The translations under genes and the position numbers were made by a program. Below the pieces are notes generated by a model that worked only from the letters and a program-made list of their open reading frames with translations, was not told the origin of the DNA and did not search any database. Source: Campylobacterales bacterium (GTDB taxonomy: Bacteria; Campylobacterota; Campylobacteria; Campylobacterales; Sulfurovaceae). From it: DNA of 64,000 nt. Of this stretch, positions 12,947 through 49,876 are shown piece by piece. Every line of letters begins with the position of its first letter. The first letter of the stretch is position 1. The stretch is taken from contig JACXUM010000003.1 in NCBI GenBank assembly GCA_014763895.1, forward strand, positions 13,429 through 77,428. The letters are read 5' to 3'.

Positions 12947-14734
12947 TTACGGATTTTTGAAATATCCGTGTTGGTAGAGCCATTTGTAGATATCAGCAGC
13001 AATTGGACCTGCAGCACTTCCTCCATGCCCGCCATGTTCGACCAATACGGTTACCACATATTGAGGGTCATCATATGGTGCATAGGTCGTAATCCAAGCA
13101 TGTGAACGATGGAAATAGGCCAACTGCTCTTCTTTGAGCCTCTTGACTGTTGCTTGCGAGATGGCCGTTACCTGTGAAGTCCCCGTCTTACCTGCAACCA
13201 CGACAGGCAATTTGCTCATTGTGGCAAATGCTGTTCCTCCCGGTATATTACACACATCATACATCCCTTTTCGAATTTCACTCAGATAGCGAGGATTAAA
13301 AGAAATTGGCTTAATCGTCGCATTGACCTCTTTATCATCTATTTTTTTAGCGATATGCGGCGTCAAAAGATTCGATGTCGCAACAAGAGCCGTATAGCGT
13401 GCCAACTGCATCGGTGTTATAAGATCATACCCCTGCCCGATGGAGGCGATAACAGTCTCTCCAAGATACCATGGCTGTTTATAGCGTTTCATTTTCCATT
13501 CTTTATCTGGGATAACGCCTGCGAACTCTAATGGTAAATCAATACCTGTTTTAACACCCAGACCGAAAGATCTTAGATATTTAGCCATCGCATCGATACC
13601 GACTTTCAAACTTTTATTGTAAAAATAGACGTCACAGCTCTCACGGATGGCCCGTCTGAGATCGACCGATCCATGTCCCCATGTCGCCCAACATCGAAAT
13701 TTATGGCTGCTTTTCCCAAGTGTGATATGACCGCTGCAAAATTCATTGGTATCAAGAATGCCCTCTTTGGCTTTCGAAAATGCCAGAGCCATTCCCATCT
13801 TGATGGTTGAACCCGGGGGATAGGTTCCATGGATCAATTTATTGGTAAAGGGATGGTTCACATCCTCCTGAAGTGCTTTCCAATCCTTGCTGCTGATCCC
13901 TCCAACAAACAGATTTGGATCAAAACTCGGATAGCTTACTGCTGCAAGTACATCTCCATTGGTTCGCATCACGATCGCTACACCAGCATCATTTCCAAAG
14001 CGTTCATAGATCATCTTTTGAAGATCTATATCAAGATTGAGTGTGAGGTTTTTATTATCCTTTGGCTCTTCCTTTTCCAAAACATCAACGGTTTGATTGG
14101 TTGCGGTTACCTTATTGATCTCGTAGCCGAGTTTACCCTCAAGCACATCATTGTAATACTTTTCAAGTCCGCTCTTTCCGACTTTGCCTACTTCGTTTAC
14201 CACCGAATCGGCATTGTTTTCAGCTTCATTGGATTTACCGGTGTAACCGACAATATGCGCACTGTATTTTCCGTAAGGATAGTAACGTTTTGTTTCTGCC
14301 TCGATATGAATCTCTGGAATCAGACTTAATCTGGGATAGGCACCCATCATATCGGGATAATGGATAAAATCAACTACTTTGATAAACTTGTGGTTATAAG
14401 GCGAATTGTTTTTTTTATAAACTTTCATCATGACGGTTTGATTGAGGTCCGGGAAGGTGTTGACAAGCGTATTGACAACAGCCTTTAGTACCGGAGAATT
14501 CTGCTTTAAATGCGGTTTGATAGAGATTGAAAAACCGATCTGGTTCATCGCAAGCAGATTGCCGTGAATATCCACTATCTCACCGCGTACCGGTTTGATA
14601 AACTGTTTTCTTTCTATGTTCTCTTTTGCCAATTCCTGATAATAAAAATTGGATTTGATGCTGACATGGTAAAGCCTGGCGATCATGACTCCCCAAAAAA
14701 TCAAAAAAATTGCAATCGTAAGCTTATATCTCAT
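12947..14734 (-). CDS. mrdA: penicillin-binding protein 2 (elongation transpeptidase)
   Basis: 595 aa; N-terminal anchor, SxxK (GSTIK), KTGT (AGKTGTSQV) motifs. Confidence 0.93.
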   Translation of the reverse strand: MRYKLTIAIFLIFWGVMIARLYHVSIKSNFYYQELAKENIERKQFIKPVRGEIVDIHGNLLAMNQIGFSISIKPHLKQNSPVLKAVVNTLVNTFPDLNQTVMMKVYKKNNSPYNHKFIKVVDFIHYPDMMGAYPRLSLIPEIHIEAETKRYYPYGKYSAHIVGYTGKSNEAENNADSVVNEVGKVGKSGLEKYYNDVLEGKLGYEINKVTATNQTVDVLEKEEPKDNKNLTLNLDIDLQKMIYERFGNDAGVAIVMRTNGDVLAAVSYPSFDPNLFVGGISSKDWKALQEDVNHPFTNKLIHGTYPPGSTIKMGMALAFSKAKEGILDTNEFCSGHITLGKSSHKFRCWATWGHGSVDLRRAIRESCDVYFYNKSLKVGIDAMAKYLRSFGLGVKTGIDLPLEFAGVIPDKEWKMKRYKQPWYLGETVIASIGQGYDLITPMQLARYTALVATSNLLTPHIAKKIDDKEVNATIKPISFNPRYLSEIRKGMYDVCNIPGGTAFATMSKLPVVVAGKTGTSQVTAISQATVKRLKEEQLAYFHRSHAWITTYAPYDDPQYVVTVLVEHGGHGGSAAGPIAADIYKWLYQHGYFKNP

Positions 14735-41665: not shown

Positions 41666-42265
41666 TTATCTTTCACCTTCAATCAAACGTTCATCAAAGG
41701 CATGTGCGGCCAGCAGTGTAAAAAAGACCGAAAGTGAGAAGGCAGTTGCTGCGGTTCCGGCGATGATATGGATATTTGCCAAATGAATCAACGCAGCAAG
41801 GATCGCCACTACAAATACGTCTATCATCGACCATGGTCCGATAATCTCTGTTAGATAGTAAAGCTTATATTTATTGACCCGTTTATCTCTTCCCAAAGGA
41901 TATTTGACACTCACAAGCAAATAGATCAAAATGAGAAATTTTAAGATCGGTATGACTATGGAAGCAAAAAATATGACCAGTGCGATCGGATAGGAACCGT
42001 GTTCCCAAAGGGTTACCACCCCTCCTAAAATCGTACTGGAAGTCGCAGCTCCAAATTGCTGTGTAACCAGCATCGGGTAAAGATTCGCAGGGATATAAGC
42101 GATCATTGCCGTAATAAGATAGGCCCAGCTTTTATGTGTAGTATACTTTTGTCCCCTATACAGAATACTTCCGCAGCGACGGCATTTCTTATTGGGACCT
42201 CTGTCGATATTTACAGCCTCGCATACATGACAGCGAATCAAATTTTCTTCATCAACTTCTATCAT
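41666..42265 (-). CDS. pqiA: PqiA-family membrane protein (second half-size paralogue)
   Basis: Trimmed to MIEVDEEN start; zinc ribbon CHVC...CRRC followed by 4 TM. Confidence 0.8.
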   Translation of the reverse strand: MIEVDEENLIRCHVCEAVNIDRGPNKKCRRCGSILYRGQKYTTHKSWAYLITAMIAYIPANLYPMLVTQQFGAATSSTILGGVVTLWEHGSYPIALVIFFASIVIPILKFLILIYLLVSVKYPLGRDKRVNKYKLYYLTEIIGPWSMIDVFVVAILAALIHLANIHIIAGTAATAFSLSVFFTLLAAHAFDERLIEGER

Positions 42266-42905
42266 CTCTATCCTCTTGCGTAAACACCCGCTTCCTGAGC
42301 ATCCAGATCTCATATGTATGCAAAGTCCTTGTCATATACAAATCCAGCAGCACAAAACCTATCAATGCCCAAAAAGAAACCCCCATATTGATCTGTGCAT
42401 ACCCTACCAATTTAACCAATGCGACCAAAATGCTCACCAAAAAAATATCGCTCATACTCCACGGCATGATATGTGAGAGTATCACAAGCATCTCTTTTGT
42501 GATATTTTCTCCTTTTTTTGATCTAAGCAGTGCAAAAAGCAGACTGTTGATCAAAAAAATCATCATTGGAAAGATAAAGATCAAAAACGCACAGATAAAT
42601 CCGACAAAATAAAAATCATTCGTAAAAAGGCTCCAGATCGTTTTAGGGATCGTAATGAACTGCTCATGACCGAGAATCTCTATCTTGACCAACGGAAATG
42701 AATTTGCCAATATGAACAAGATCAATCCGCTGATACTCAGTGCCAGCCCATGTTCTGTTAATTGACTGTCATATCGGTAGAGAACATTGCCACAGCGTGT
42801 ACAGCATGCTTTGGCCCTCTCTTTTATCGCTATCTCTTTGTGAAGCGTATGACACCGTCTGCAGATAATATAATCGTCTAATGCATCTTCGTTTTCAAGT
42901 TTCAT
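42252..42905 (-). CDS. pqiA: PqiA-family membrane protein (first half-size paralogue)
   Basis: Zinc ribbon CRRC...CTRC then 4 TM. ORF-track start is TTG 42929; ATG 42905 is preferred (start uncertain). Confidence 0.75.
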   Translation of the reverse strand: MKLENEDALDDYIICRRCHTLHKEIAIKERAKACCTRCGNVLYRYDSQLTEHGLALSISGLILFILANSFPLVKIEILGHEQFITIPKTIWSLFTNDFYFVGFICAFLIFIFPMMIFLINSLLFALLRSKKGENITKEMLVILSHIMPWSMSDIFLVSILVALVKLVGYAQINMGVSFWALIGFVLLDLYMTRTLHTYEIWMLRKRVFTQEDRDDRS

Positions 42906-42982
42906 GGCTATAATTATATCTGATATCAAAAAGGTTGTATACTATTTTAAATGATATTCTATTACTCAATCAGGAATCAGAA

Positions 42983-43666
42983 ATGAAAATTCTTTCTATC
43001 GGTAAAGTCATCCATTCTGGTGGTCTTGATATTACATCTATAGAGGAATCTTCTCTTTCATCGTTTGATAATATAGGGGCATATGATTATGTCATTATCA
43101 ATGGTGGCGACGGAACGATCCGAAGAGTGCTCAAACAGCTCCATTCATTAGACCATCCTCCTGTTTTCATACTCAACCCTACCGGTTCTTTCAATGTCGT
43201 CGCAAAGATACACCGTGCCCCCAGGATCGAAACCGTACTCGACATGCTCTTGCGAGGCCAAATTCCCAAAACGGAAAAACACCATATCTTTAAGCTCAAT
43301 GACGAACTGTTTCTTTTTTCCGCAGGAAATATGGGAGATCTGCAGCATATCTTTCTATCCGAAACATTGCGTTTTGGCATCCTTGAAAAAGGTCCATACA
43401 AATATATTCTTGCCCTGCTTTTCCTATTGCCGGTTCATCTTATCATGACCCCTTTCATGCTTGCCAGTCCCAAACGTTTTTTTATCTTCACGCCACTGAG
43501 ATTTATCAAAAAACTTGGAAGCTTCTACGGTGAAGTCCAAAAAGAGATGTATTTCGATCTGGATAACGAATACAATATGCTTGAACTGGACGGTGACATA
43601 GTCACGGTCCATGGAAGATACCTGTATATCAAACAGGCAGGAAATGTTTCCATCGTAACGCAATAA
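42983..43666 (+). CDS. diacylglycerol/lipid kinase-family protein (DAGK catalytic fold), short
   Basis: Trimmed to MKILSIGK; VIINGGDGTIRRV motif. Confidence 0.65.
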   Translation: MKILSIGKVIHSGGLDITSIEESSLSSFDNIGAYDYVIINGGDGTIRRVLKQLHSLDHPPVFILNPTGSFNVVAKIHRAPRIETVLDMLLRGQIPKTEKHHIFKLNDELFLFSAGNMGDLQHIFLSETLRFGILEKGPYKYILALLFLLPVHLIMTPFMLASPKRFFIFTPLRFIKKLGSFYGEVQKEMYFDLDNEYNMLELDGDIVTVHGRYLYIKQAGNVSIVTQ

Positions 43667-43734
43667 GCCGTATCCATGCCTCTCGCCTGAAAATAACAAT
43701 ATATTATAAATTTAATAATTTTTACTTAATTGTA

Positions 43735-43763
43735 TTGACTTTTGAACATGTGTCCGTTATAAT
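43735..43763 (+). promoter_or_regulatory. sigma70-type promoter of the DUF134-cyd operon
   Basis: TTGACT (43735..43740), 17-nt spacer, TATAAT (43758..43763), 44 nt upstream of the ATG. Confidence 0.65.
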
Positions 43764-43775
43764 CAGGCTTACATT

Positions 43776-43791
43776 TTGAACATATGTTCAA
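43776..43791. promoter_or_regulatory. perfect 16-bp palindrome operator TTGAACATATGTTCAA
   Basis: Self-complementary 16-mer 12 nt downstream of the -10 box; extra half-site TTGAACAT at 43742..43749 inside the promoter spacer. Confidence 0.55.
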
Positions 43792-43807
43792 TATTTAAGG
43801 AAATACA

Positions 43808-44116
43808 ATGCCACAATACGGAAGAAAAAAGATCATTCGCACGATATCCAAAGATCATACGCAAGTCTGTTTTAAACCGTGCGGTATCAAAAGGATGTAT
43901 CTGGATAGGATCGGTCTGGATACCGATGAGATGGAAGCGATCCGCCTCAGCGATTTTGAAGGACTCTACCAGGAAGAGTGTGCCAATCGTATGGGCATAT
44001 CCAGAACAACTTTTTCAAGGATACTGACAACCGCACACAAAAAAATAGCCGATGCCCTTTTACACGGAAAAGCCATCGTCATGAGCACAGAAAATAAACC
44101 AAAGGAAGACAAATGA
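43808..44116 (+). CDS. DUF134 (UPF0251) putative DNA-binding protein
   Basis: 102 aa; FKPCGI, DEMEAIRLSDFEGLYQEECANRMGISRTTFSRIL, GKAIV match DUF134 layout (recalled). Confidence 0.85.
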   Translation: MPQYGRKKIIRTISKDHTQVCFKPCGIKRMYLDRIGLDTDEMEAIRLSDFEGLYQEECANRMGISRTTFSRILTTAHKKIADALLHGKAIVMSTENKPKEDK

Positions 44117-44531
44117 AAATAGCCATACCCGTAAAAACAAATAAAGAAAATCCGGCAGTTGCCCCGCTTTTTGGCAAAGCCAAATGGTTTGCATTCATAG
44201 AAGAAGACGGAAAAGTGACGATCGAACCCAATCCGATACCTGATGGACAGGCCGTCATACGATGGTTCATAGACAAAAAGTCGATACCGTCATCATGCAG
44301 GAGATGGGTATAAACCCCTATAGAAAGATCAAAGAATATGGCGGTATACGTCTTTACCACAGCGGATTTGAACGCATCACGCTTGATGAAGTTCTCAAAG
44401 CATTTCATAACGGCCAGCTTCCGCTACTTGATGATGCTGTGATGGCACAGATCATCAAACACCATGAAAGCAGACATACGCATGGCGGACACTCTCACGG
44501 TCACGGACATGAACATCATCACCATCATTAA
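44113..44531 (+). pseudogene. NifX/NifB-type (COG1433) cofactor-binding-domain protein with His-rich tail, frameshifted in an A5 run
   Basis: ORFs 44113..44313 (MKIAIPV...APLFGKAKWFAFIE...) and 44262..44531 (...VDTVIMQEMGINPYRKIKEYGGIRLY...) are the two halves of one NifX-like domain. They join if A5 (44275..44279) were A6. Confidence 0.75.
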
Positions 44532-44733
44532 ACAGATCTTGGGCTTTTATCTTGAAGGATTTCAAAGTATGAAAGTCGGTAGACGGCTATGGGCGATTAT
44601 AGCCATCAAATTTATCGTGTTCTTTCTTGTGATGAAATGGCTTTTCTTTCCCAATTATCTGGAAGAGAACTTTTCCAATGACACTCAAAGAGCAGAGCAT
44701 GTGATGAAACACCTAAATCTGGAGGATAACTAA
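44509..44733 (+). CDS. DUF4492 small membrane protein (cyd-associated)
   Basis: Trimmed to MNIITIIKQILGFYLEGFQSM...; LWAIIAIKFIVFFLVMKWLFFPNYL matches the DUF4492 pattern known upstream of cydAB (recalled); TAATG overlap with cydA. Confidence 0.65.
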   Translation: MNIITIIKQILGFYLEGFQSMKVGRRLWAIIAIKFIVFFLVMKWLFFPNYLEENFSNDTQRAEHVMKHLNLEDN

Positions 44734-46259
44734 TGGAAAACTTACTGTTGGTCGATTGGTCAAGAGCCCAATTTGCCCTCACTGCAATGTATCATTGGCT
44801 CTTTGTGCCTTTGACGCTGGGGCTCTCATTTATCGTGGCGATCATGGAGACGATCTATGTCAAAACCGGTTCACAGACCTGGAAACGGATCACCAAGTTC
44901 TGGATGACACTCTTTGCGATCAACTTTGCGATCGGTCTGGCTACCGGGATCATCATGGAGTTTGAATTCGGTACCAACTGGTCAAACTACTCATGGATCG
45001 TCGGGGACATCTTCGGAGCGCCTTTGGCAGTCGAAGGGATCATGGCATTTTTCATGGAATCGACGTTCTTTGCTGTGATGTTCTTTGGGTGGGACAAGGT
45101 CAGCAAGAAAATGCACCTGCTCTCTACCTGGCTTGTAGCCATCGGTTCAAACCTCTCTGCGCTTTGGATCCTCGTTGCCAACGGCTGGATGCAGCATCCT
45201 GTGGGTATGCAGTTTAACGTCGATACGGCACGTTTTGAAATGGCAAGCTTTTTTGATGTTCTTTTCAATCCCAATGCCTACTCCAAATTCCTTCACGCCA
45301 TCGGCAGCGGTTATGTGATGGCAGCATTATTCGTCGTAGGTATCAGTGCTTGGTACCTGCTGAAGAACAAAGAGGTCGTAAAAGCCAGAAAAAGTATGGT
45401 CGTAGGTGCGACATTCGGTTTGATCACCTCTATTTTCCTGATATTCTCAGGAGATGAGTCGGCACACGAGGTTGCTCTCAATCAACCTGCAAAACTTGCG
45501 GCAATGGAAGGTCTTTATGACGGGCATTCGCGTGCGGGGATCATCGCCATGGGACAGCTTGACCCGCAAAAAAAGATAGGTGACGGCAAACCCGAATTTT
45601 TATGGAGCATTGAAGTGCCTTATGCGCTTTCTGTACTGGGATATCACAGTATGGATGCTTTCGTACCAGGGATCGAAGATCTAGTGCTTGGGAATGAACA
45701 AGCTGGTATCGAAAGTGCCCAAAGCAAGATCGAAAAAGGCAAGATCGCCATTGAATCGCTCAAACGCTATAAAGAAGCTCACAAAACAGGTAATTCTACG
45801 GAAGCGACCGAGGCACTTAGCACATTCAGAGCAAATGAACAGTATTTTGGCTACGGTTACCTCAAATCACCCGAAGATATCATCCCCCCGGTAGCACTGA
45901 CCTTTTACAGTTTCCATATCATGGTCGGACTGGGAAGCTGGTTTTTGGTGCTTTTTTTCTTTGTACTCTACTTTGCAATGACGGGAAAGATCGAGAACAA
46001 AAAAATACTCTTGCATTCAGCAATCTGGTCGATTCCGCTTGGATATCTGGCCGGAGAACTGGGATGGGTCGTTGCCGAGGTAGGAAGACAGCCATGGGCG
46101 ATACAGGGTATGCTTCCGGTTGGCATGGCAAGTTCTCAGGTGAGTATCACGGCGGTTCAAACGACATTCTGGCTTTTTGCGCTCATCTTTACGACATTGC
46201 TGATCGCTGAGATACGCATCATGCTAAAACAGATCAAATTGGGAATGGAGGAGCACTGA
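44733..46259 (+). CDS. cydA: cytochrome bd ubiquinol oxidase subunit I
   Basis: 508 aa; RAQFALTAMYHWLFVPLTLG N-terminus, GWDKVS, Q-loop, GRQPW motif. Confidence 0.96.
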   Translation: MENLLLVDWSRAQFALTAMYHWLFVPLTLGLSFIVAIMETIYVKTGSQTWKRITKFWMTLFAINFAIGLATGIIMEFEFGTNWSNYSWIVGDIFGAPLAVEGIMAFFMESTFFAVMFFGWDKVSKKMHLLSTWLVAIGSNLSALWILVANGWMQHPVGMQFNVDTARFEMASFFDVLFNPNAYSKFLHAIGSGYVMAALFVVGISAWYLLKNKEVVKARKSMVVGATFGLITSIFLIFSGDESAHEVALNQPAKLAAMEGLYDGHSRAGIIAMGQLDPQKKIGDGKPEFLWSIEVPYALSVLGYHSMDAFVPGIEDLVLGNEQAGIESAQSKIEKGKIAIESLKRYKEAHKTGNSTEATEALSTFRANEQYFGYGYLKSPEDIIPPVALTFYSFHIMVGLGSWFLVLFFFVLYFAMTGKIENKKILLHSAIWSIPLGYLAGELGWVVAEVGRQPWAIQGMLPVGMASSQVSITAVQTTFWLFALIFTTLLIAEIRIMLKQIKLGMEEH

Positions 46260-46260
46260 G

Positions 46261-47385
46261 ATGTTTGAAAAAATGGAACTTTTAACCCTCCAGCAGTACT
46301 GGTGGTTCATCATCGCGGTACTGGGCGGTCTTTTTGCCTTTATGATGTTCGTACAGGGCGGACAGAGCCTTTTGGGAAGACTGGGCAAAACCGAGGAGGA
46401 GAAAGACCTCATCATCGCCTCTTTGGGACGTAAATGGGAGCTTGGTTTTACCTCGTTGGTACTCTTCGGCGGTGCGCTTTTTGCCGCATTTCCTCTTTTT
46501 TATGCGGTCAGCTTCGGAGGCGCCTACTATGCATGGATGGCGATTCTCTTTTGTTTCATCCTCCAGGCTGTCTCTTATGAATACCGTAAAAAACCGGACA
46601 ATTTTCTGGGGCAGAAGGTCTATGAGAAATTCCTTTACCTCAACGGTTCCCTGGGGATCATTTTAGTAGGCGTAGCTTTGGGAACGCTTTACACTGGCGG
46701 GAATTTTATCAAGAACGAGATGAACCTCTCATCCTGGACACTATCCAGCCATGGATTGGAAGCGCTGCTCAACCCATTCAACGTCGCTTTGGGTTTCACA
46801 CTTTTCTTTTTGGCAAGGGCACAGGCTGGTCTGTACTTCATCAACAACATCGCTGAAGCTTCCATCACCCAGCGTGCACGAAAACAGCTGCGCTACGATG
46901 CGATCTTCTTTTTGGGATTTTTCCTTATGGTTGCAGTGATGCTCTTTACCATGAGCGGAGTAGGTTACGGTACGAACGGATTTGAAGTGGTCAACTACCT
47001 CTTTTTACACAATCTTATCAGCTCTCCTCTGATCCTGACAGGATTGATCCTGGGAGCAGGATTGGTGGTGTTCGCATTCTATATCACACTGTTTAAAAAT
47101 GCAGCCAAAGGAGTCTGGTTCAGCGGTGTCGGTACGATCCTTACCGTGATCAGCCTTCTTTCTTTGTTGGGCTTTAACCATACAGCGATCTACCCATCAC
47201 TCAGCGATCTTGGAAGCTCATTGACGATCGAGAACAGTTCGGGCAGCCACTATACGCTCAGCGTGATGAGTTACGTATCATTGATGGTACCGTTTGTTCT
47301 GGGATATATCTATCTGGTCTGGAGATCAATGGATAAAACCAAGATCACACACAAAGAGGTCCAGGCGGACCATCACCATTACTAG
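46261..47385 (+). CDS. cydB: cytochrome bd ubiquinol oxidase subunit II
   Basis: 374 aa polytopic; LQQYWWFIIAVL start typical of CydB; 1-nt gap after cydA. Confidence 0.93.
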   Translation: MFEKMELLTLQQYWWFIIAVLGGLFAFMMFVQGGQSLLGRLGKTEEEKDLIIASLGRKWELGFTSLVLFGGALFAAFPLFYAVSFGGAYYAWMAILFCFILQAVSYEYRKKPDNFLGQKVYEKFLYLNGSLGIILVGVALGTLYTGGNFIKNEMNLSSWTLSSHGLEALLNPFNVALGFTLFFLARAQAGLYFINNIAEASITQRARKQLRYDAIFFLGFFLMVAVMLFTMSGVGYGTNGFEVVNYLFLHNLISSPLILTGLILGAGLVVFAFYITLFKNAAKGVWFSGVGTILTVISLLSLLGFNHTAIYPSLSDLGSSLTIENSSGSHYTLSVMSYVSLMVPFVLGYIYLVWRSMDKTKITHKEVQADHHHY

Positions 47386-47393
47386 GAGGATGC

Positions 47394-47558
47394 ATGGAAA
47401 CGGTTGATTATACAAACGCATTGCTATGGTATGCCGCATGGCCCGTAGCAATCTTTATCAGTTACAAATTCATTCGATTGAATATCGAACATCTTGAAGA
47501 GTTTATCGAACCACGGATCGAAGAGAAATCACAAAAACAACAAAAGGAGAAAAAATGA
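47394..47558 (+). CDS. unannotated 54-aa single-TM protein (candidate bd-oxidase small subunit)
   Basis: Below the ORF-track size cut-off; my translation is METVDYTNALLWYAAWPVAIFISYKFIRLNIEHLEEFIEPRIEEKSQKQQKEKK. AGGAGGA SD at 47384..47390; stop overlaps the next ATG (ATGA, 47555..47558). Confidence 0.5.
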   Translation: METVDYTNALLWYAAWPVAIFISYKFIRLNIEHLEEFIEPRIEEKSQKQQKEKK

Positions 47559-47920
47559 GACTTGTCTACCCGACAGATGACGCAATGGGTTACCTCAGCA
47601 GACGCGGAGCCCATTTTGGAAAAGCCAAATACTATACAATCATCACTCTGGATGCAGAGCAGATCAAAGATGTAGAGGTCATTGAAAACCCCGGACACAG
47701 CGGCGGTGCCTGCGGCAATGCCGTGGCCAATATCATGGACCTCTCTCCCGATGCCCTTATCGTCAGCGGTATCGGCGGATCACCGGCACAGGGCTTTGCC
47801 AAAGCAGGGCTGGATCTCTACTTTGACAGGGTTTCGGCAACGGTAGAAGAGAGTGTAACACTGTTTATACAAGGCAGACTTGAAAAAAGCAGCGGCAACG
47901 GCACCTGCAGCACGCATTAA
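47555..47920 (+). CDS. NifX/NifB-type (COG1433) cofactor-binding-domain protein
   Basis: 121 aa; AHFGKAKYYTIITL...VIENPGHSGGACG...ALIVSGIGGSPAQGFAKAGLDLYF. Confidence 0.8.
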   Translation: MRLVYPTDDAMGYLSRRGAHFGKAKYYTIITLDAEQIKDVEVIENPGHSGGACGNAVANIMDLSPDALIVSGIGGSPAQGFAKAGLDLYFDRVSATVEESVTLFIQGRLEKSSGNGTCSTH

Positions 47921-48002
47921 TAAAAAGCCGCCAAACCCGGCTACACTAAAACATGCTACAATATGAGGTTAATATCATTCCGGTAACCAAAGGACACCTC
48001 AC

Positions 48003-48596
48003 ATGAGCGAAAAGATCAAAGAGATCATCGATGAGATCGAAGCATTGAAAAACAAACTTGCCGAAGAGCTTGATGCCAAACAAAACGATTTTGCCTATGA
48101 GATCAAAAACGGCTATGTACATTTTGAAAAAGAGGTCTTAGCCAAACAAAAGCTCTACATGAAAGATCTTTTGACCTATTTTAGCGAGATCCCGCCGATC
48201 CAGCTGCTCATCGCGCCGCTGGTCTATGGGATGATCCTGCCTGCGATCGTTTTTGATATGATGCTCTTTGTCTATCAGCAGGTGGTCTTTCGTATCTATA
48301 AGTTCGAATTTGTCAAACGAAGCGACTACATCGTCTTTGACCGCAACTATCTTGCCTATCTCAATATCATAGAAAAGATCAATTGTATGTACTGTTCCTA
48401 TTTTAACGGATTGATGCAGTATGCCTCCCGTATCGCCGCTCAGACCGAACGCTACTTCTGTCCCATCAAGCACGCCAAGAAGATCGCCTATAGCCATGAT
48501 TTCTATCAGGATTTTTTTACTTACGGAGACGGGGTGGACTATCAAAAAAAGCTAAGCCGGATAAGAGAAGAGATGCAGGAGAAGAAACCTTCCTAA
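48003..48596 (+). CDS. hypothetical membrane protein
   Basis: 197 aa; N-terminal coiled coil, one or two TM, Cys motif CMYCSY...FCPIKH. Confidence 0.55.
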   Translation: MSEKIKEIIDEIEALKNKLAEELDAKQNDFAYEIKNGYVHFEKEVLAKQKLYMKDLLTYFSEIPPIQLLIAPLVYGMILPAIVFDMMLFVYQQVVFRIYKFEFVKRSDYIVFDRNYLAYLNIIEKINCMYCSYFNGLMQYASRIAAQTERYFCPIKHAKKIAYSHDFYQDFFTYGDGVDYQKKLSRIREEMQEKKPS

Positions 48597-49876
48597 TCTT
48601 TGGAAAGCCTTTCATAGTAATCCACCACCCTGCTATCGACATGGATGATACGTCTGAGGTATTGCGTCAGATCCCCTTTATTAAAGTCGATACGCAGTTT
48701 TTTGGGGTCTATCGCCCTTGAGATCGCGACATAAAACTGGCTGGGTGCAAAGATGTGATCCACATTGCAAACCAGGTTGTCGATGCTCATACCCTGACTT
48801 TTGTGTATCGTCACCGCATAGGCAAGCTTCAGGGGAAACTGCGAAAGCGTTGCTAGGGCGATACTCTCTATTGTACCGTCCTCTTTTACCGCCATATCAA
48901 GAAGGTCAAAGTCATGGCGTTCCACTCTCACAAACTCCTCTTCCTTTTCAACGATCAGGTAGTCATCTTCTATCTTTGTGAGTATCCCTCTCTCCCCGTT
49001 GACGAATTTACCCCATTTGTTGACCGTAAAGAGTACGGGAACCCCCTCTTTGAGTGTCAGATGCTCTGAGATAGGCAGCATTGCCTTCCAGCCCGAAAGC
49101 TTCTTTTCGTGGACATTGCCGTGCATCGTCAGATCGGCAAAGAGGATCGTCTCTTCGGTATCAAGCTGGTTGATCCTCGCTCGGTTGGTCTGTTCGACTT
49201 CAACATTACGCCCAAAAAGATAGGTCGGTTCTTCCTGCGGCATCGGGGTATTCCACAGCCGCTGCATATAGGTAATGACCTCATCGTCACACATCCCCCT
49301 GCGTACTTTGTTGAGGATATGGGTAAACTCCGCATCCTGCGTACGCTTCATCACTGTCAGTTCTATGACCGTAAGCTCAAAGGCATCCCATGCACTGCTC
49401 TCGAAGGCATAAAGACGCTCTGAAAAAAGATGAGAGGACGGTGTGCTTTTCTGCACCGGAGGAAGCTGGAAAAAGTCCCCTACAAAAAGTACTTTGCCAA
49501 GATAGCCGTAATGGTTCAGCCGATAGGCGATCATATCCATCAGGTCGGCACTGACCATCGAGATCTCGTCGATGATGATCAGGTCGGTGGCTTTAAGGAC
49601 TTTTTTTAGATCACTGAGACGCTTTTTGGCATGCCTGTCATGTGCGGCAAGTTCTTCAAAGTTCGAAGCGATCCCAAAAACGAAAAAGCTGTGCACCGTA
49701 AATCCGCCGATGTTGACCGCACTCACCCCCGTAGAACCGAGTGAAACGACCTGCTTGCCACGTTTGCGGTAGTCGCTGATGACTTCGTTGGTAATATAGC
49801 TCTTCCCTACTCCTGCACCGCCTGTAAGGAATACGTTAGAGTGTTTGAGGGCTTCGAGTACGTCAGTTTTGTCCAT
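48593..49876 (-). CDS. PIF1/RecD-like SF1 DNA helicase
   Basis: 427 aa; Walker A GGAGVGKSY, IIIDEISMV, GDFFQLPPV, VTIHKSQGMS motifs. Confidence 0.88.
   Translation of the reverse strand: MDKTDVLEALKHSNVFLTGGAGVGKSYITNEVISDYRKRGKQVVSLGSTGVSAVNIGGFTVHSFFVFGIASNFEELAAHDRHAKKRLSDLKKVLKATDLIIIDEISMVSADLMDMIAYRLNHYGYLGKVLFVGDFFQLPPVQKSTPSSHLFSERLYAFESSAWDAFELTVIELTVMKRTQDAEFTHILNKVRRGMCDDEVITYMQRLWNTPMPQEEPTYLFGRNVEVEQTNRARINQLDTEETILFADLTMHGNVHEKKLSGWKAMLPISEHLTLKEGVPVLFTVNKWGKFVNGERGILTKIEDDYLIVEKEEEFVRVERHDFDLLDMAVKEDGTIESIALATLSQFPLKLAYAVTIHKSQGMSIDNLVCNVDHIFAPSQFYVAISRAIDPKKLRIDFNKGDLTQYLRRIIHVDSRVVDYYERLSKD

Follow-up and report, generated by a model that had tools for sequence, protein, structure and literature searches.

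A cytochrome bd operon of Sulfurovaceae flanked by DUF134 and NifX-like genes and its probable control by a DeoR-type repressor

The cytochrome bd genes of a Campylobacterales bacterium of the Sulfurovaceae (GenBank assembly GCA_014763895.1, contig JACXUM010000003.1) lie in a co-directional cluster at 43808-47920 (+ strand) of the 64,000-nucleotide stretch analysed here (positions 13,429 to 77,428 of the contig, hereafter the window), accompanied by genes for a DUF134/UPF0251 protein and for two NifX-like proteins. We propose, with a probability of about 0.6, that DUF134 is an autoregulated DeoR-type repressor which, together with NifX-like effector modules, controls an operon that has recruited the bd oxidase; the role of the DUF134 and NifX-like cassette is probably to switch the oxidase on and off, not to assemble it. 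The first-pass annotation had suggested a cofactor- or metal-handling or O2-sensing accessory module for the oxidase, of which the regulatory or sensing role is well supported by the evidence below and the dedicated accessory or biogenesis role is not.

The anatomy was derived from the listing of open reading frames (ORFs) and direct reading of the sequence at 43500-48300, and families were assigned by Pfam and NCBIfam profile matches of the window proteins. The first gene (43808-44116, +) encodes the DUF134 protein (102 aa; PF02001, 9e-23, 81.1 bits against a cut-off of 27) and shares an ATGA overlap (44113-44116) with the gene for the first NifX-like protein (NifX1, 44113-44531, +), which has a histidine-rich tail and is interrupted in this genome (ORFs 44113-44313 and 44262-44531). 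There follow, all on the + strand, a small DUF4492 membrane protein (44509-44733; PF14899, 9e-24), CydA, i.e., subunit I of the long Q-loop type (44733-46259; PF01654, 2e-163, 544 bits), CydB, i.e., subunit II (46261-47385; PF02322, 3e-65, 221 bits), a 54-aa ORF with one hydrophobic helix and the motif LLWYAAWP (47394-47558), and the second NifX-like protein (NifX2, 47555-47920, 121 aa; PF02579, 6e-13, 49.3 bits against a cut-off of 26.3). DUF4492 and cydA meet at TAATG (44731-44735), cydA and cydB are separated by 1 nt (46260), an 8-nt gap (47386-47393) lies between cydB and the 54-aa ORF with an AGGAGGA that begins within the TAG stop codon of cydB, and the 54-aa ORF and NifX2 again share ATGA (47555-47558), such that all junctions of the cluster overlap or are at most 8 nt apart. 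The co-directional order and the coupled junctions, as originally described, were read directly from the sequence, and the family matches hold. The 23-nt overlap described at 44509-44531 is present if DUF4492 starts at the ATG at 44509, but this start is ambiguous because there are further in-frame ATGs at 44464 and 44482. The ORF labelled NifX-like with a His tail consists of two ORFs in different frames.

The putative control region precedes DUF134. The best sigma-70-type promoter (11/12 positions matched) consists of TTGACT (43735-43740), a 17-nt spacer and TATAAT (43758-43763, + strand), and no comparable site was found inside the cluster in a promoter scan of 43400-48700. Just downstream, at about +6 to +21 of the predicted transcript, there is a perfect 16-bp palindrome, TTGAACATATGTTCAA (43776-43791), which is the predicted DUF134 operator and has no other match with two or fewer mismatches in the window. 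A degenerate copy, TTGAACATGTGTCCGT (43742-43757), fills the promoter spacer; in two sister contigs (L167 and L168) this spacer copy is nearly perfect (TTGAACATATGTTCGT) and lies 34 bp upstream of the perfect copy. The predicted positions of the two sites, one within the -35/-10 spacer and one just after the transcript start, would imply repression as well as autoregulation.

All related loci that were inspected (more than 15 besides the window's) have the motif (core ACATATGT) upstream of their DUF134 genes, usually in two copies 30-34 bp apart that overlap the -35 box, the promoter spacer or the start of the transcript, and at a distance of about -26 to -29 from the DUF134 start codon. The ACATATG core occurred within 150 bp upstream of 37 of 67 DUF134 genes and of 45 of 631 other genes (odds ratio 16, p=8e-21), and the motif stays with DUF134 where the operon has no cyd genes (L086, L170). 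We also collected 80 loci encoding the closest relatives of the window's CydA in species-representative genomes and searched their ORFs with the window's proteins; here the presence of the motif before cyd went with an adjacent DUF134 gene (Fisher p=2e-5). Where no DUF134 gene adjoins, the cyd promoter has no such motif in L085, in L171 and in the majority of the 64 loci of this kind. The experimentally defined operator of Bacillus subtilis DeoR, ATTGAACAAAATTTCAATTACCAATTTACATATGTTCAA (ATTGAACAAAATTTCAAT...TTTACATATGTTCAA), has the same TTGAA-N6-TTCAA half-sites and spacing as the window palindrome, and both contain ACATATGTTCAA.

The protein itself points to the same relationship. A search with the DUF134 family profile finds 7bhy, the solved DNA-binding domain of B. 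subtilis DeoR, at E=4e-5 and 38% identity over about 40 aa, and the recognition helix (ISR.T.SRL) is conserved. In the AlphaFold2 model of DUF134, residues 30-92 are predicted with confidence and form a helix-turn-helix (HTH) followed by a beta-strand (beta-linker), and the HTH superposes on the DeoR DNA-binding domain and on sigma region 4 with a root-mean-square deviation of 0.6-0.8 A (Foldseek); the SorC/DeoR DNA-binding domain has been described as a homeodomain-like HTH with a beta-linker. The window protein (102 aa) does not have the NagB-like sugar-binding C-terminal domain of about 250 aa that is the hallmark of SorC/DeoR proteins and is therefore DeoR-like at the DNA level, not a member of that family. 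Its N-terminal motif is DHxxVCFKPCG, and among 121 homologues H17, C21 and C25 are invariant or nearly so and C58 is 93% conserved, which makes a set of three cysteines and one histidine.

Longer DUF134 forms of 195-205 aa (Arcobacteraceae, Sulfurimonas, Sulfuricurvum) carry a NifX-like domain after the beta-linker and do not have the Cys motif. PF02579 was detected directly in one of them (L013), and a search of the PDB with a profile including eight long forms gave a match to 1o13/TM1816 (1.7e-8) via the C-terminal domain. At the same chromosomal site as in the window (PqiAB-DAGK...PIF1), another Sulfurovum locus (L169) encodes a short, Cys-containing DUF134 fused directly to NifX1 (232 aa). 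In these fusions the NifX-like domain sits where SorC proteins carry their effector-binding domain. Given the L169 fusion and the ATGA overlap in the window, NifX1 is therefore best read as a detached effector or partner domain. A more far-reaching and only tentative suggestion is that DUF134 might represent a new class of repressors, in which a DeoR-type DNA-binding domain is combined with a metal-sulfur cluster sensor of the NifX fold, either fused or as a separate partner.

The locus would accordingly be a composite, with a four-gene cyd module (DUF4492-cydA-cydB-small transmembrane ORF) inside a pre-existing DUF134-NifX1-NifX2 cassette; the simplest history would be an insertion of the cyd core between NifX1 and NifX2. 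A single promoter before DUF134 would drive all the genes, and a DUF134 dimer, or a dimer of dimers, would bind the TTGAA-N6-TTCAA palindrome together with the second copy in the -35/-10 spacer and so repress its own operon and hence the oxidase. The NifX-like proteins would form the effector side of the regulator: gain or loss of a cluster or metal would free the repressor from the DNA, upon which the oxidase and the NifX-like proteins would be co-induced. Plausible triggers are an oxidative loss of Fe-S clusters, which would fit the induction of an O2-scavenging oxidase and the Fe-S-related cargo of other DUF134 operons (a NifU-domain protein, MinD-like Fe-S ATPases, flavin reductase), or a load of sulfide or metal sulfide, which would fit cargo such as rhodanese, TauE, TehA and IssA-like proteins and the sulfide resistance of bd oxidases.

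The cargo was surveyed in a second sample of 80 metagenomic DUF134 loci, with linkage counted on loci of at least 4 kb. A NifX-like gene was found within 5 kb of 30 of 43 DUF134 genes (about 70%), and only about four have cydAB. Other recurrent neighbours of DUF134 were TehA, DUF302, TauE, rhodanese, TrmO-like, MFS, flavin reductase and dihaem cytochrome c genes, an IssA-like NifX protein with a Gly/Arg tail, and complete ORP-type clusters. The IssA-like architecture is seen in L142 (8257-8793), where the NifX-like protein adjoining DUF134 has a C-terminal, Gly/Arg-rich cationic tail (GFGRGFGRGRGFGRG...); an unannotated ORF of similar size adjoins DUF134 in L137, L156, L159 and L123. An ORP-type cluster in L117 (1168-3931) comprises DUF134, a Gly-rich 96-aa ORF, two MinD-like ATPases with 4Fe-4S ferredoxin inserts and NifX-like genes, with the operator core upstream, and the gene pattern is similar in L119, L122, L130, L131 and L138 (Campylobacterota metagenomes).

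This cargo bears on a rival explanation that differs from the repressor model in the signal only, namely a sulfide or reactive-sulfur stress regulon in which DUF134 senses persulfide or polysulfide via its cysteines, or through a metal sulfide or thiometallate captured by the NifX-like proteins, and induces the sulfide-insensitive, copper-free bd oxidase along with genes for the handling of sulfur anions. bd oxidases resist sulfide, TauE and rhodanese are typical of CstR/BigR-type persulfide regulons, and the hosts are, according to their record labels, sulfur oxidisers of sulfidic habitats; related DUF134 operons carry a periplasmic rhodanese, TauE, TehA, DUF302 and the IssA-like NifX protein with its Gly/Arg tail, and in L007 and L011 further copies of the operator lie in front of the promoters of NifX1 and rhodanese-TauE. 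However, the long DUF134 forms have no Cys motif, none of these cargo genes is part of the window's operon, the NifU-domain protein, MinD-like Fe-S ATPases and flavin reductase favour Fe-S homeostasis, and no expression data turned up in the literature search. We consider a sulfide signal rather unlikely and, within the proposed DUF134 repressor model, we favour the state of an Fe-S or metal-sulfur cluster as the signal.

Among the 80 CydA loci, DUF134 was found within about 6 kb of cyd in 10 and NifX-like genes in 13, which answers the question, raised with the first-pass annotation, of whether COG1433 and DUF134 genes flank cydAB elsewhere; the arrangement is not unique to this genome. The loci concerned belong to Sulfurovum, Sulfurimonas, Sulfuricurvum and Arcobacteraceae, all but one being Campylobacterota by label, and one NifX-like match near cyd comes from a Flavobacteriaceae locus (L053). 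NifX-like and DUF134 genes were found in none of the Campylobacter and Helicobacter cyd loci and in almost none of those of Bacteroidota. A metagenome-assembled genome (MAG) labelled Spirochaetia (L011, CBDCGX010000014.1) has a cyd/DUF134/NifX1/rhodanese/TauE locus syntenic with that of Sulfurovum L007 and a CydA 71% identical to the window's, possibly by mis-binning or recent transfer. The gene order is DUF134-NifX1-[cyd core]-NifX2 in Sulfurovum, a divergent DUF134 followed by [cyd core]-NifX1-NifX2-HemN-like in Arcobacteraceae, and NifX1-DUF4492-NifX2-cydAB in Sulfuricurvum. That the genes recur together in shuffled orders speaks for a functional link, co-expression at the least. The HemN-family radical SAM gene (PRK08629, 502 bits) of L013 (9603-10907) and L014 (9584-10897) lies 23-30 nt after NifX2, a possible link to haem. 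Two Sulfurovum cyd clusters, L084 (8307-8471) and L171 (3412-3576), have another conserved 54-aa ORF directly upstream of NifX1, with four cysteines (e.g., MAVAEDIGCSNEVCVEAPKCKR...GCGKFIPKKE); it has no family match and is absent from the window.

The cassette also exists without the oxidase. The chromosomal site of the window (PqiAB/MlaD-DAGK ... PIF1 helicase) carries a cyd version in L084 (Sulfurovum sp. TSL1), and in other Sulfurovum it is occupied by genes without cyd: the DUF134::NifX1 fusion-NifX2-MFS-NifU in L169 and DUF134-NifX1-NifX2-hyp182-TrmO in L170. A Sulfurimonas locus (L086) reads DUF134-TehA-DUF302-NifX1-NifX2-TrmO-MFS, with cyd absent. The sister contig L168 (5385-6327, ERR14856879) encodes an identical DUF134 protein, and DUF4492-cydA-cydB have been precisely deleted from it, with NifX1, the small ORF and NifX2 remaining; the ends of the deletion correspond to a 9-nt repeat, CATCACCAT (microhomology), in the NifX1 His-tail and the 3' end of cydB, and the result is a chimeric NifX1 ending in HHHHY.

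These distributions bear on the other functional rival, in which NifX1 and NifX2 would serve the bd oxidase alone, as chaperones for its cofactors or its assembly (e.g., for haem or metal delivery), with DUF134 merely a local regulator. Such a role would agree with the interleaving of NifX and cyd genes in three orders across genera, with the HemN-family gene 3' of NifX2 in Arcobacteraceae, with the high conservation of NifX2 (70-83% identity across hundreds of Campylobacterota sequences) and with L171, in which NifX1-cyd-NifX2 is retained without an adjacent DUF134. However, about 84% of the closely related cydAB loci have no NifX-like neighbour (about 16% have one, compared with 70% for the linkage of DUF134 and NifX), the cassette occurs without cyd in L169, L170 and L086 and survives the precise cyd deletion in L168, NifX1 is frameshifted in the window's genome with cydAB intact, and haem binding is not known for any protein of this fold. 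Furthermore, DUF4492 and the 54-aa ORF belong to the common cyd core and are not specific to this cluster. The biogenesis idea of the first-pass annotation is thus weakly supported, and we regard a chaperone role as improbable. A third explanation, that the palindrome is bound by some other regulator (of the Crp/Fnr type like NssR, or a true SorC/DeoR protein) with DUF134 located beside it by accident, is highly improbable. The palindrome superficially resembles Crp/Fnr-type boxes (TTGAT-N4-ATCAA and TTAAC-N4-GTTAA), but the motif follows DUF134 whatever the cargo and at its fixed distance from the start codon and is missing in front of cyd where no DUF134 gene adjoins, and the DUF134 HTH is homologous to the one solved DNA-binding domain known to bind this half-site and spacing.

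Several observations weigh against the proposal that DUF134 and its NifX-like partners act as a repressor system. The retention of both NifX genes with cydAB in L171, a NifX2 wedged between DUF4492 and cydA in L018, and the HemN-family neighbour in Arcobacteraceae suggest that the NifX-like proteins may be tied more closely to the oxidase or its haems. Of the 67 DUF134 genes, 30 have no core motif within 150 bp (mostly genes internal to operons or distant paralogues), the AlphaFold2 model is poor for the Cys/His arm at the N-terminus of DUF134 (predicted local distance difference test score, pLDDT, about 50), and a cluster-binding role is weaker for NifX1 than for NifX2 because NifX1 has no conserved Cys. 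The literature search, which included a review of respiratory regulation in Campylobacterota, returned nothing on DUF134/UPF0251 function or on cyd regulation in these taxa and no experimental datum for any DUF134 protein, so that binding, repression and effector are inferred here; the earlier statement that DUF134/COG1433 pairs have no assigned function holds for the literature searched.

NifX1 of the window is split into ORFs of 66 aa (44113-44313) and 89 aa (44262-44531, in the other frame) because of a 1-nt deletion (a missing T) between 44279 and 44280; in the alignment the window reads GACAAAAA-GTCGAT where the sister contigs L167 and L168 read GACAAAAATGTCGAT. The operon of L167 is 97% identical, has the same seven genes and contains an intact 135-aa NifX1, which shows that the seven-gene operon exists; NifX1 is also intact in L005, L054, L170 and L171. 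The PF02579 score is 20.7 bits for the window fragment and 41.5 bits for intact orthologues. A programmed -1 frameshift at C AAA AAG was rejected as the main reading: the sister contigs, 97% identical, read GACAAAAATGTCGAT and have the ORF in one piece, and there is no A-run in the more distant orthologues. Low-level slippage may restore some full-length protein. A random assembly error is unlikely, since the split was called in all three Logan contigs examined (of 18 with an identical NifX2 protein) and in the NCBI MAG record (MBD3789130-38), where the 89-aa fragment, found on 12 contigs, is a separate protein (MBD3789132); a systematic error within one sample series could conceivably account for it. 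NifX1 is probably a pseudogene in the window's strain, in which regulation may be altered as a consequence.

In NifX2, H20, H48, C53 and C118 are invariant in 121 homologues. Its AlphaFold2 model (pLDDT 89) has query-normalised TM-scores (template modelling scores) of 0.78-0.82 to PH0822, TM1816 and ORP in Foldseek and also resembles MTH1175, with NifX and NafY more distant (0.65-0.67). The [3Fe-4S]-binding Di-Nase domain of MrpORP has the motifs CxHFGHCE and a C-terminal CDH (PMC6345978); at those positions NifX2 has AHFGKA (no Cys), the invariant GxC53 and a C-terminal C118-S-x-H, and its match to the MrpORP model (29 bits) covers the Di-Nase domain only. Characterised members of the fold bind FeMo-co or NifB-co, a Mo-Cu-S cluster (ORP), [3Fe-4S] (the C-terminal domain of MrpORP) or thioferrate (IssA) (PMC6345978), and by analogy we infer that the NifX-like proteins of this operon may bind inorganic metal-sulfur species. 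The candidate ligands are the two Cys and two His of NifX2, the His-rich tail of NifX1 and the three Cys and one His of the short DUF134. Of the genes called up to about 8 kb away from the operon in either direction, none is a nif gene, and this also applies to the related loci; the rest of the window was not scanned for nif genes.

The oxidase genes belong to a widespread core. Among the 80 CydA loci, DUF4492-cydA-cydB is near-universal in Campylobacterota, Bacteroidota and Desulfobulbia, with DUF4492 as the conserved first gene upstream of cydA in most loci, and a homologue of the 54-aa ORF lies directly 3' of cydB in about half of them, including loci without NifX or DUF134. CydA aligns end to end with E. 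coli CydA (6rko, E=3e-127, residues 6-504) and keeps the haem ligands and acidic residues H19, E99, E107, H186, M393 and E445 (pairwise alignment, E. coli numbering). To judge from these matches, CydAB is an ordinary bd-family quinol oxidase with two small, conserved and uncharacterised membrane partners; a Campylobacter homologue is reported to lack bd-type spectra. The literature search gave nothing on the function of DUF4492. The 54-aa ORF, itself without a family match, was not accepted as CydX: six of its homologues had no match to any Pfam or NCBIfam model, those of CydX and CydS included, even at E<=10, and the only points of agreement are its position after cydB and its single transmembrane helix. 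It may resemble E. coli CydX in a W-Y-x-A-W stretch. The ORF is a candidate for a small third or fourth subunit of the oxidase.

Beyond NifX2, a search for a terminator gave just a weak hairpin (47926-47942) with its T-run on the opposite strand. The next ORF, hyp197 (48003-48596, +; 197 aa), has predicted membrane helices and a CMYCSYF motif and matches no Pfam or NCBIfam family; it was ruled out as a member of the operon, being missing from the sister contig L167 and located 82 nt away. On the other side of the operon, PqiA (41666-42929, -), upstream of MlaD/PqiB, consists of two consecutive, slightly overlapping ORFs (215 and 225 aa), a split that is probably native and not a frameshift because all related Sulfurovum loci show it. 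An Rfam scan of the whole window gave a single match, a c-di-GMP-I-GGC riboswitch aptamer (RF03167, 61691-61765, -; 62.2 bits against a gathering score of 59), which is unrelated to the operon.

No role has been assigned to DUF134/UPF0251 proteins or to single-domain NifX-like proteins, although both are common among anaerobes and archaea, and the locus described here makes both testable, with a predicted operator, a predicted promoter architecture, a partner assignment based on fusions and candidate ligand residues. If the tentative reading of DUF134 as a new class of cluster-sensing repressors is true, DUF134/UPF0251 would gain its first function, as would the "orphan" NifX-like proteins found in non-diazotrophs, and in sulfur-oxidising Campylobacterota the terminal oxidase would be chosen in direct response to Fe-S or sulfide status. 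The repressor model is also offered as a proposal for bd oxidase regulation in the sulfur oxidisers of vents and sediments. The locus also suggests caution in annotation, as a "NifB/NifX family molybdenum-iron cluster-binding protein" beside cydAB should be taken as a sign of neither nitrogen fixation nor an oxidase assembly factor. The genomic association of DUF134 with NifX, as in ORP-type clusters, is already known; the recruited terminal oxidase, the operator prediction, the relationship to the DeoR DNA-binding domain and the reading of the NifX domain as effector are new.

One of the closest known systems is B. subtilis DeoR, the SorC/DeoR repressor of dra-nupC-pdp, which resembles the DUF134 system in its homologous DNA-binding domain (HTH and beta-linker), its TTGAA-N6-TTCAA operator, the two half-operators over the promoter and a regulator gene that adjoins the target operon. 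It differs in that short DUF134 proteins have just an N-terminal Cys/His arm and the long forms a NifX-like domain instead of the NagB-like sugar-phosphate domain, and in its targets, which are nucleoside catabolism genes in DeoR and would be respiratory and metal-sulfur genes in DUF134. The Desulfovibrio ORP cluster likewise combines metal-sulfur proteins of the NifX fold (Di-Nase) with small conserved "anaerobe" proteins (PMC6345978), and the ORP-type clusters of Campylobacterota metagenomes (L117 and the five loci similar to it) begin with DUF134. In contrast, the window's operon has no MinD-like ATPases, Mrp/NBP35 domain or sigma-54 regulator and carries a terminal oxidase; the two MinD-like ATPases with [4Fe-4S] ferredoxin inserts (Orp3/4) and MrpORP are missing from 43808-47920 as well as from its flanks. 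Desulfovibrio Orp5 (DVU2105) may belong to DUF134. With E. coli cydAB(X) (bd-I/bd-II) the operon shares full-length CydA and CydB, the haem and proton-path residues, the long Q-loop and a small single-transmembrane ORF after cydB, although it has an additional DUF4492 upstream and its small ORF matches no CydX model; E. coli cydAB is regulated by ArcA and FNR, whereas the window's cydAB lies in a DUF134 operon. Finally, IscR, NsrR and RsrR of the Rrf2 family exemplify the logic proposed here, in which a small repressor regulates its own expression and has its DNA binding governed by a labile cluster, and the ligand set of IscR resembles the candidate three Cys and one His of short DUF134; Rrf2 repressors, however, bind DNA through a winged helix and not a DeoR-type HTH, and sensing in the DUF134 system may fall to a NifX-like domain, whether fused or on its own.

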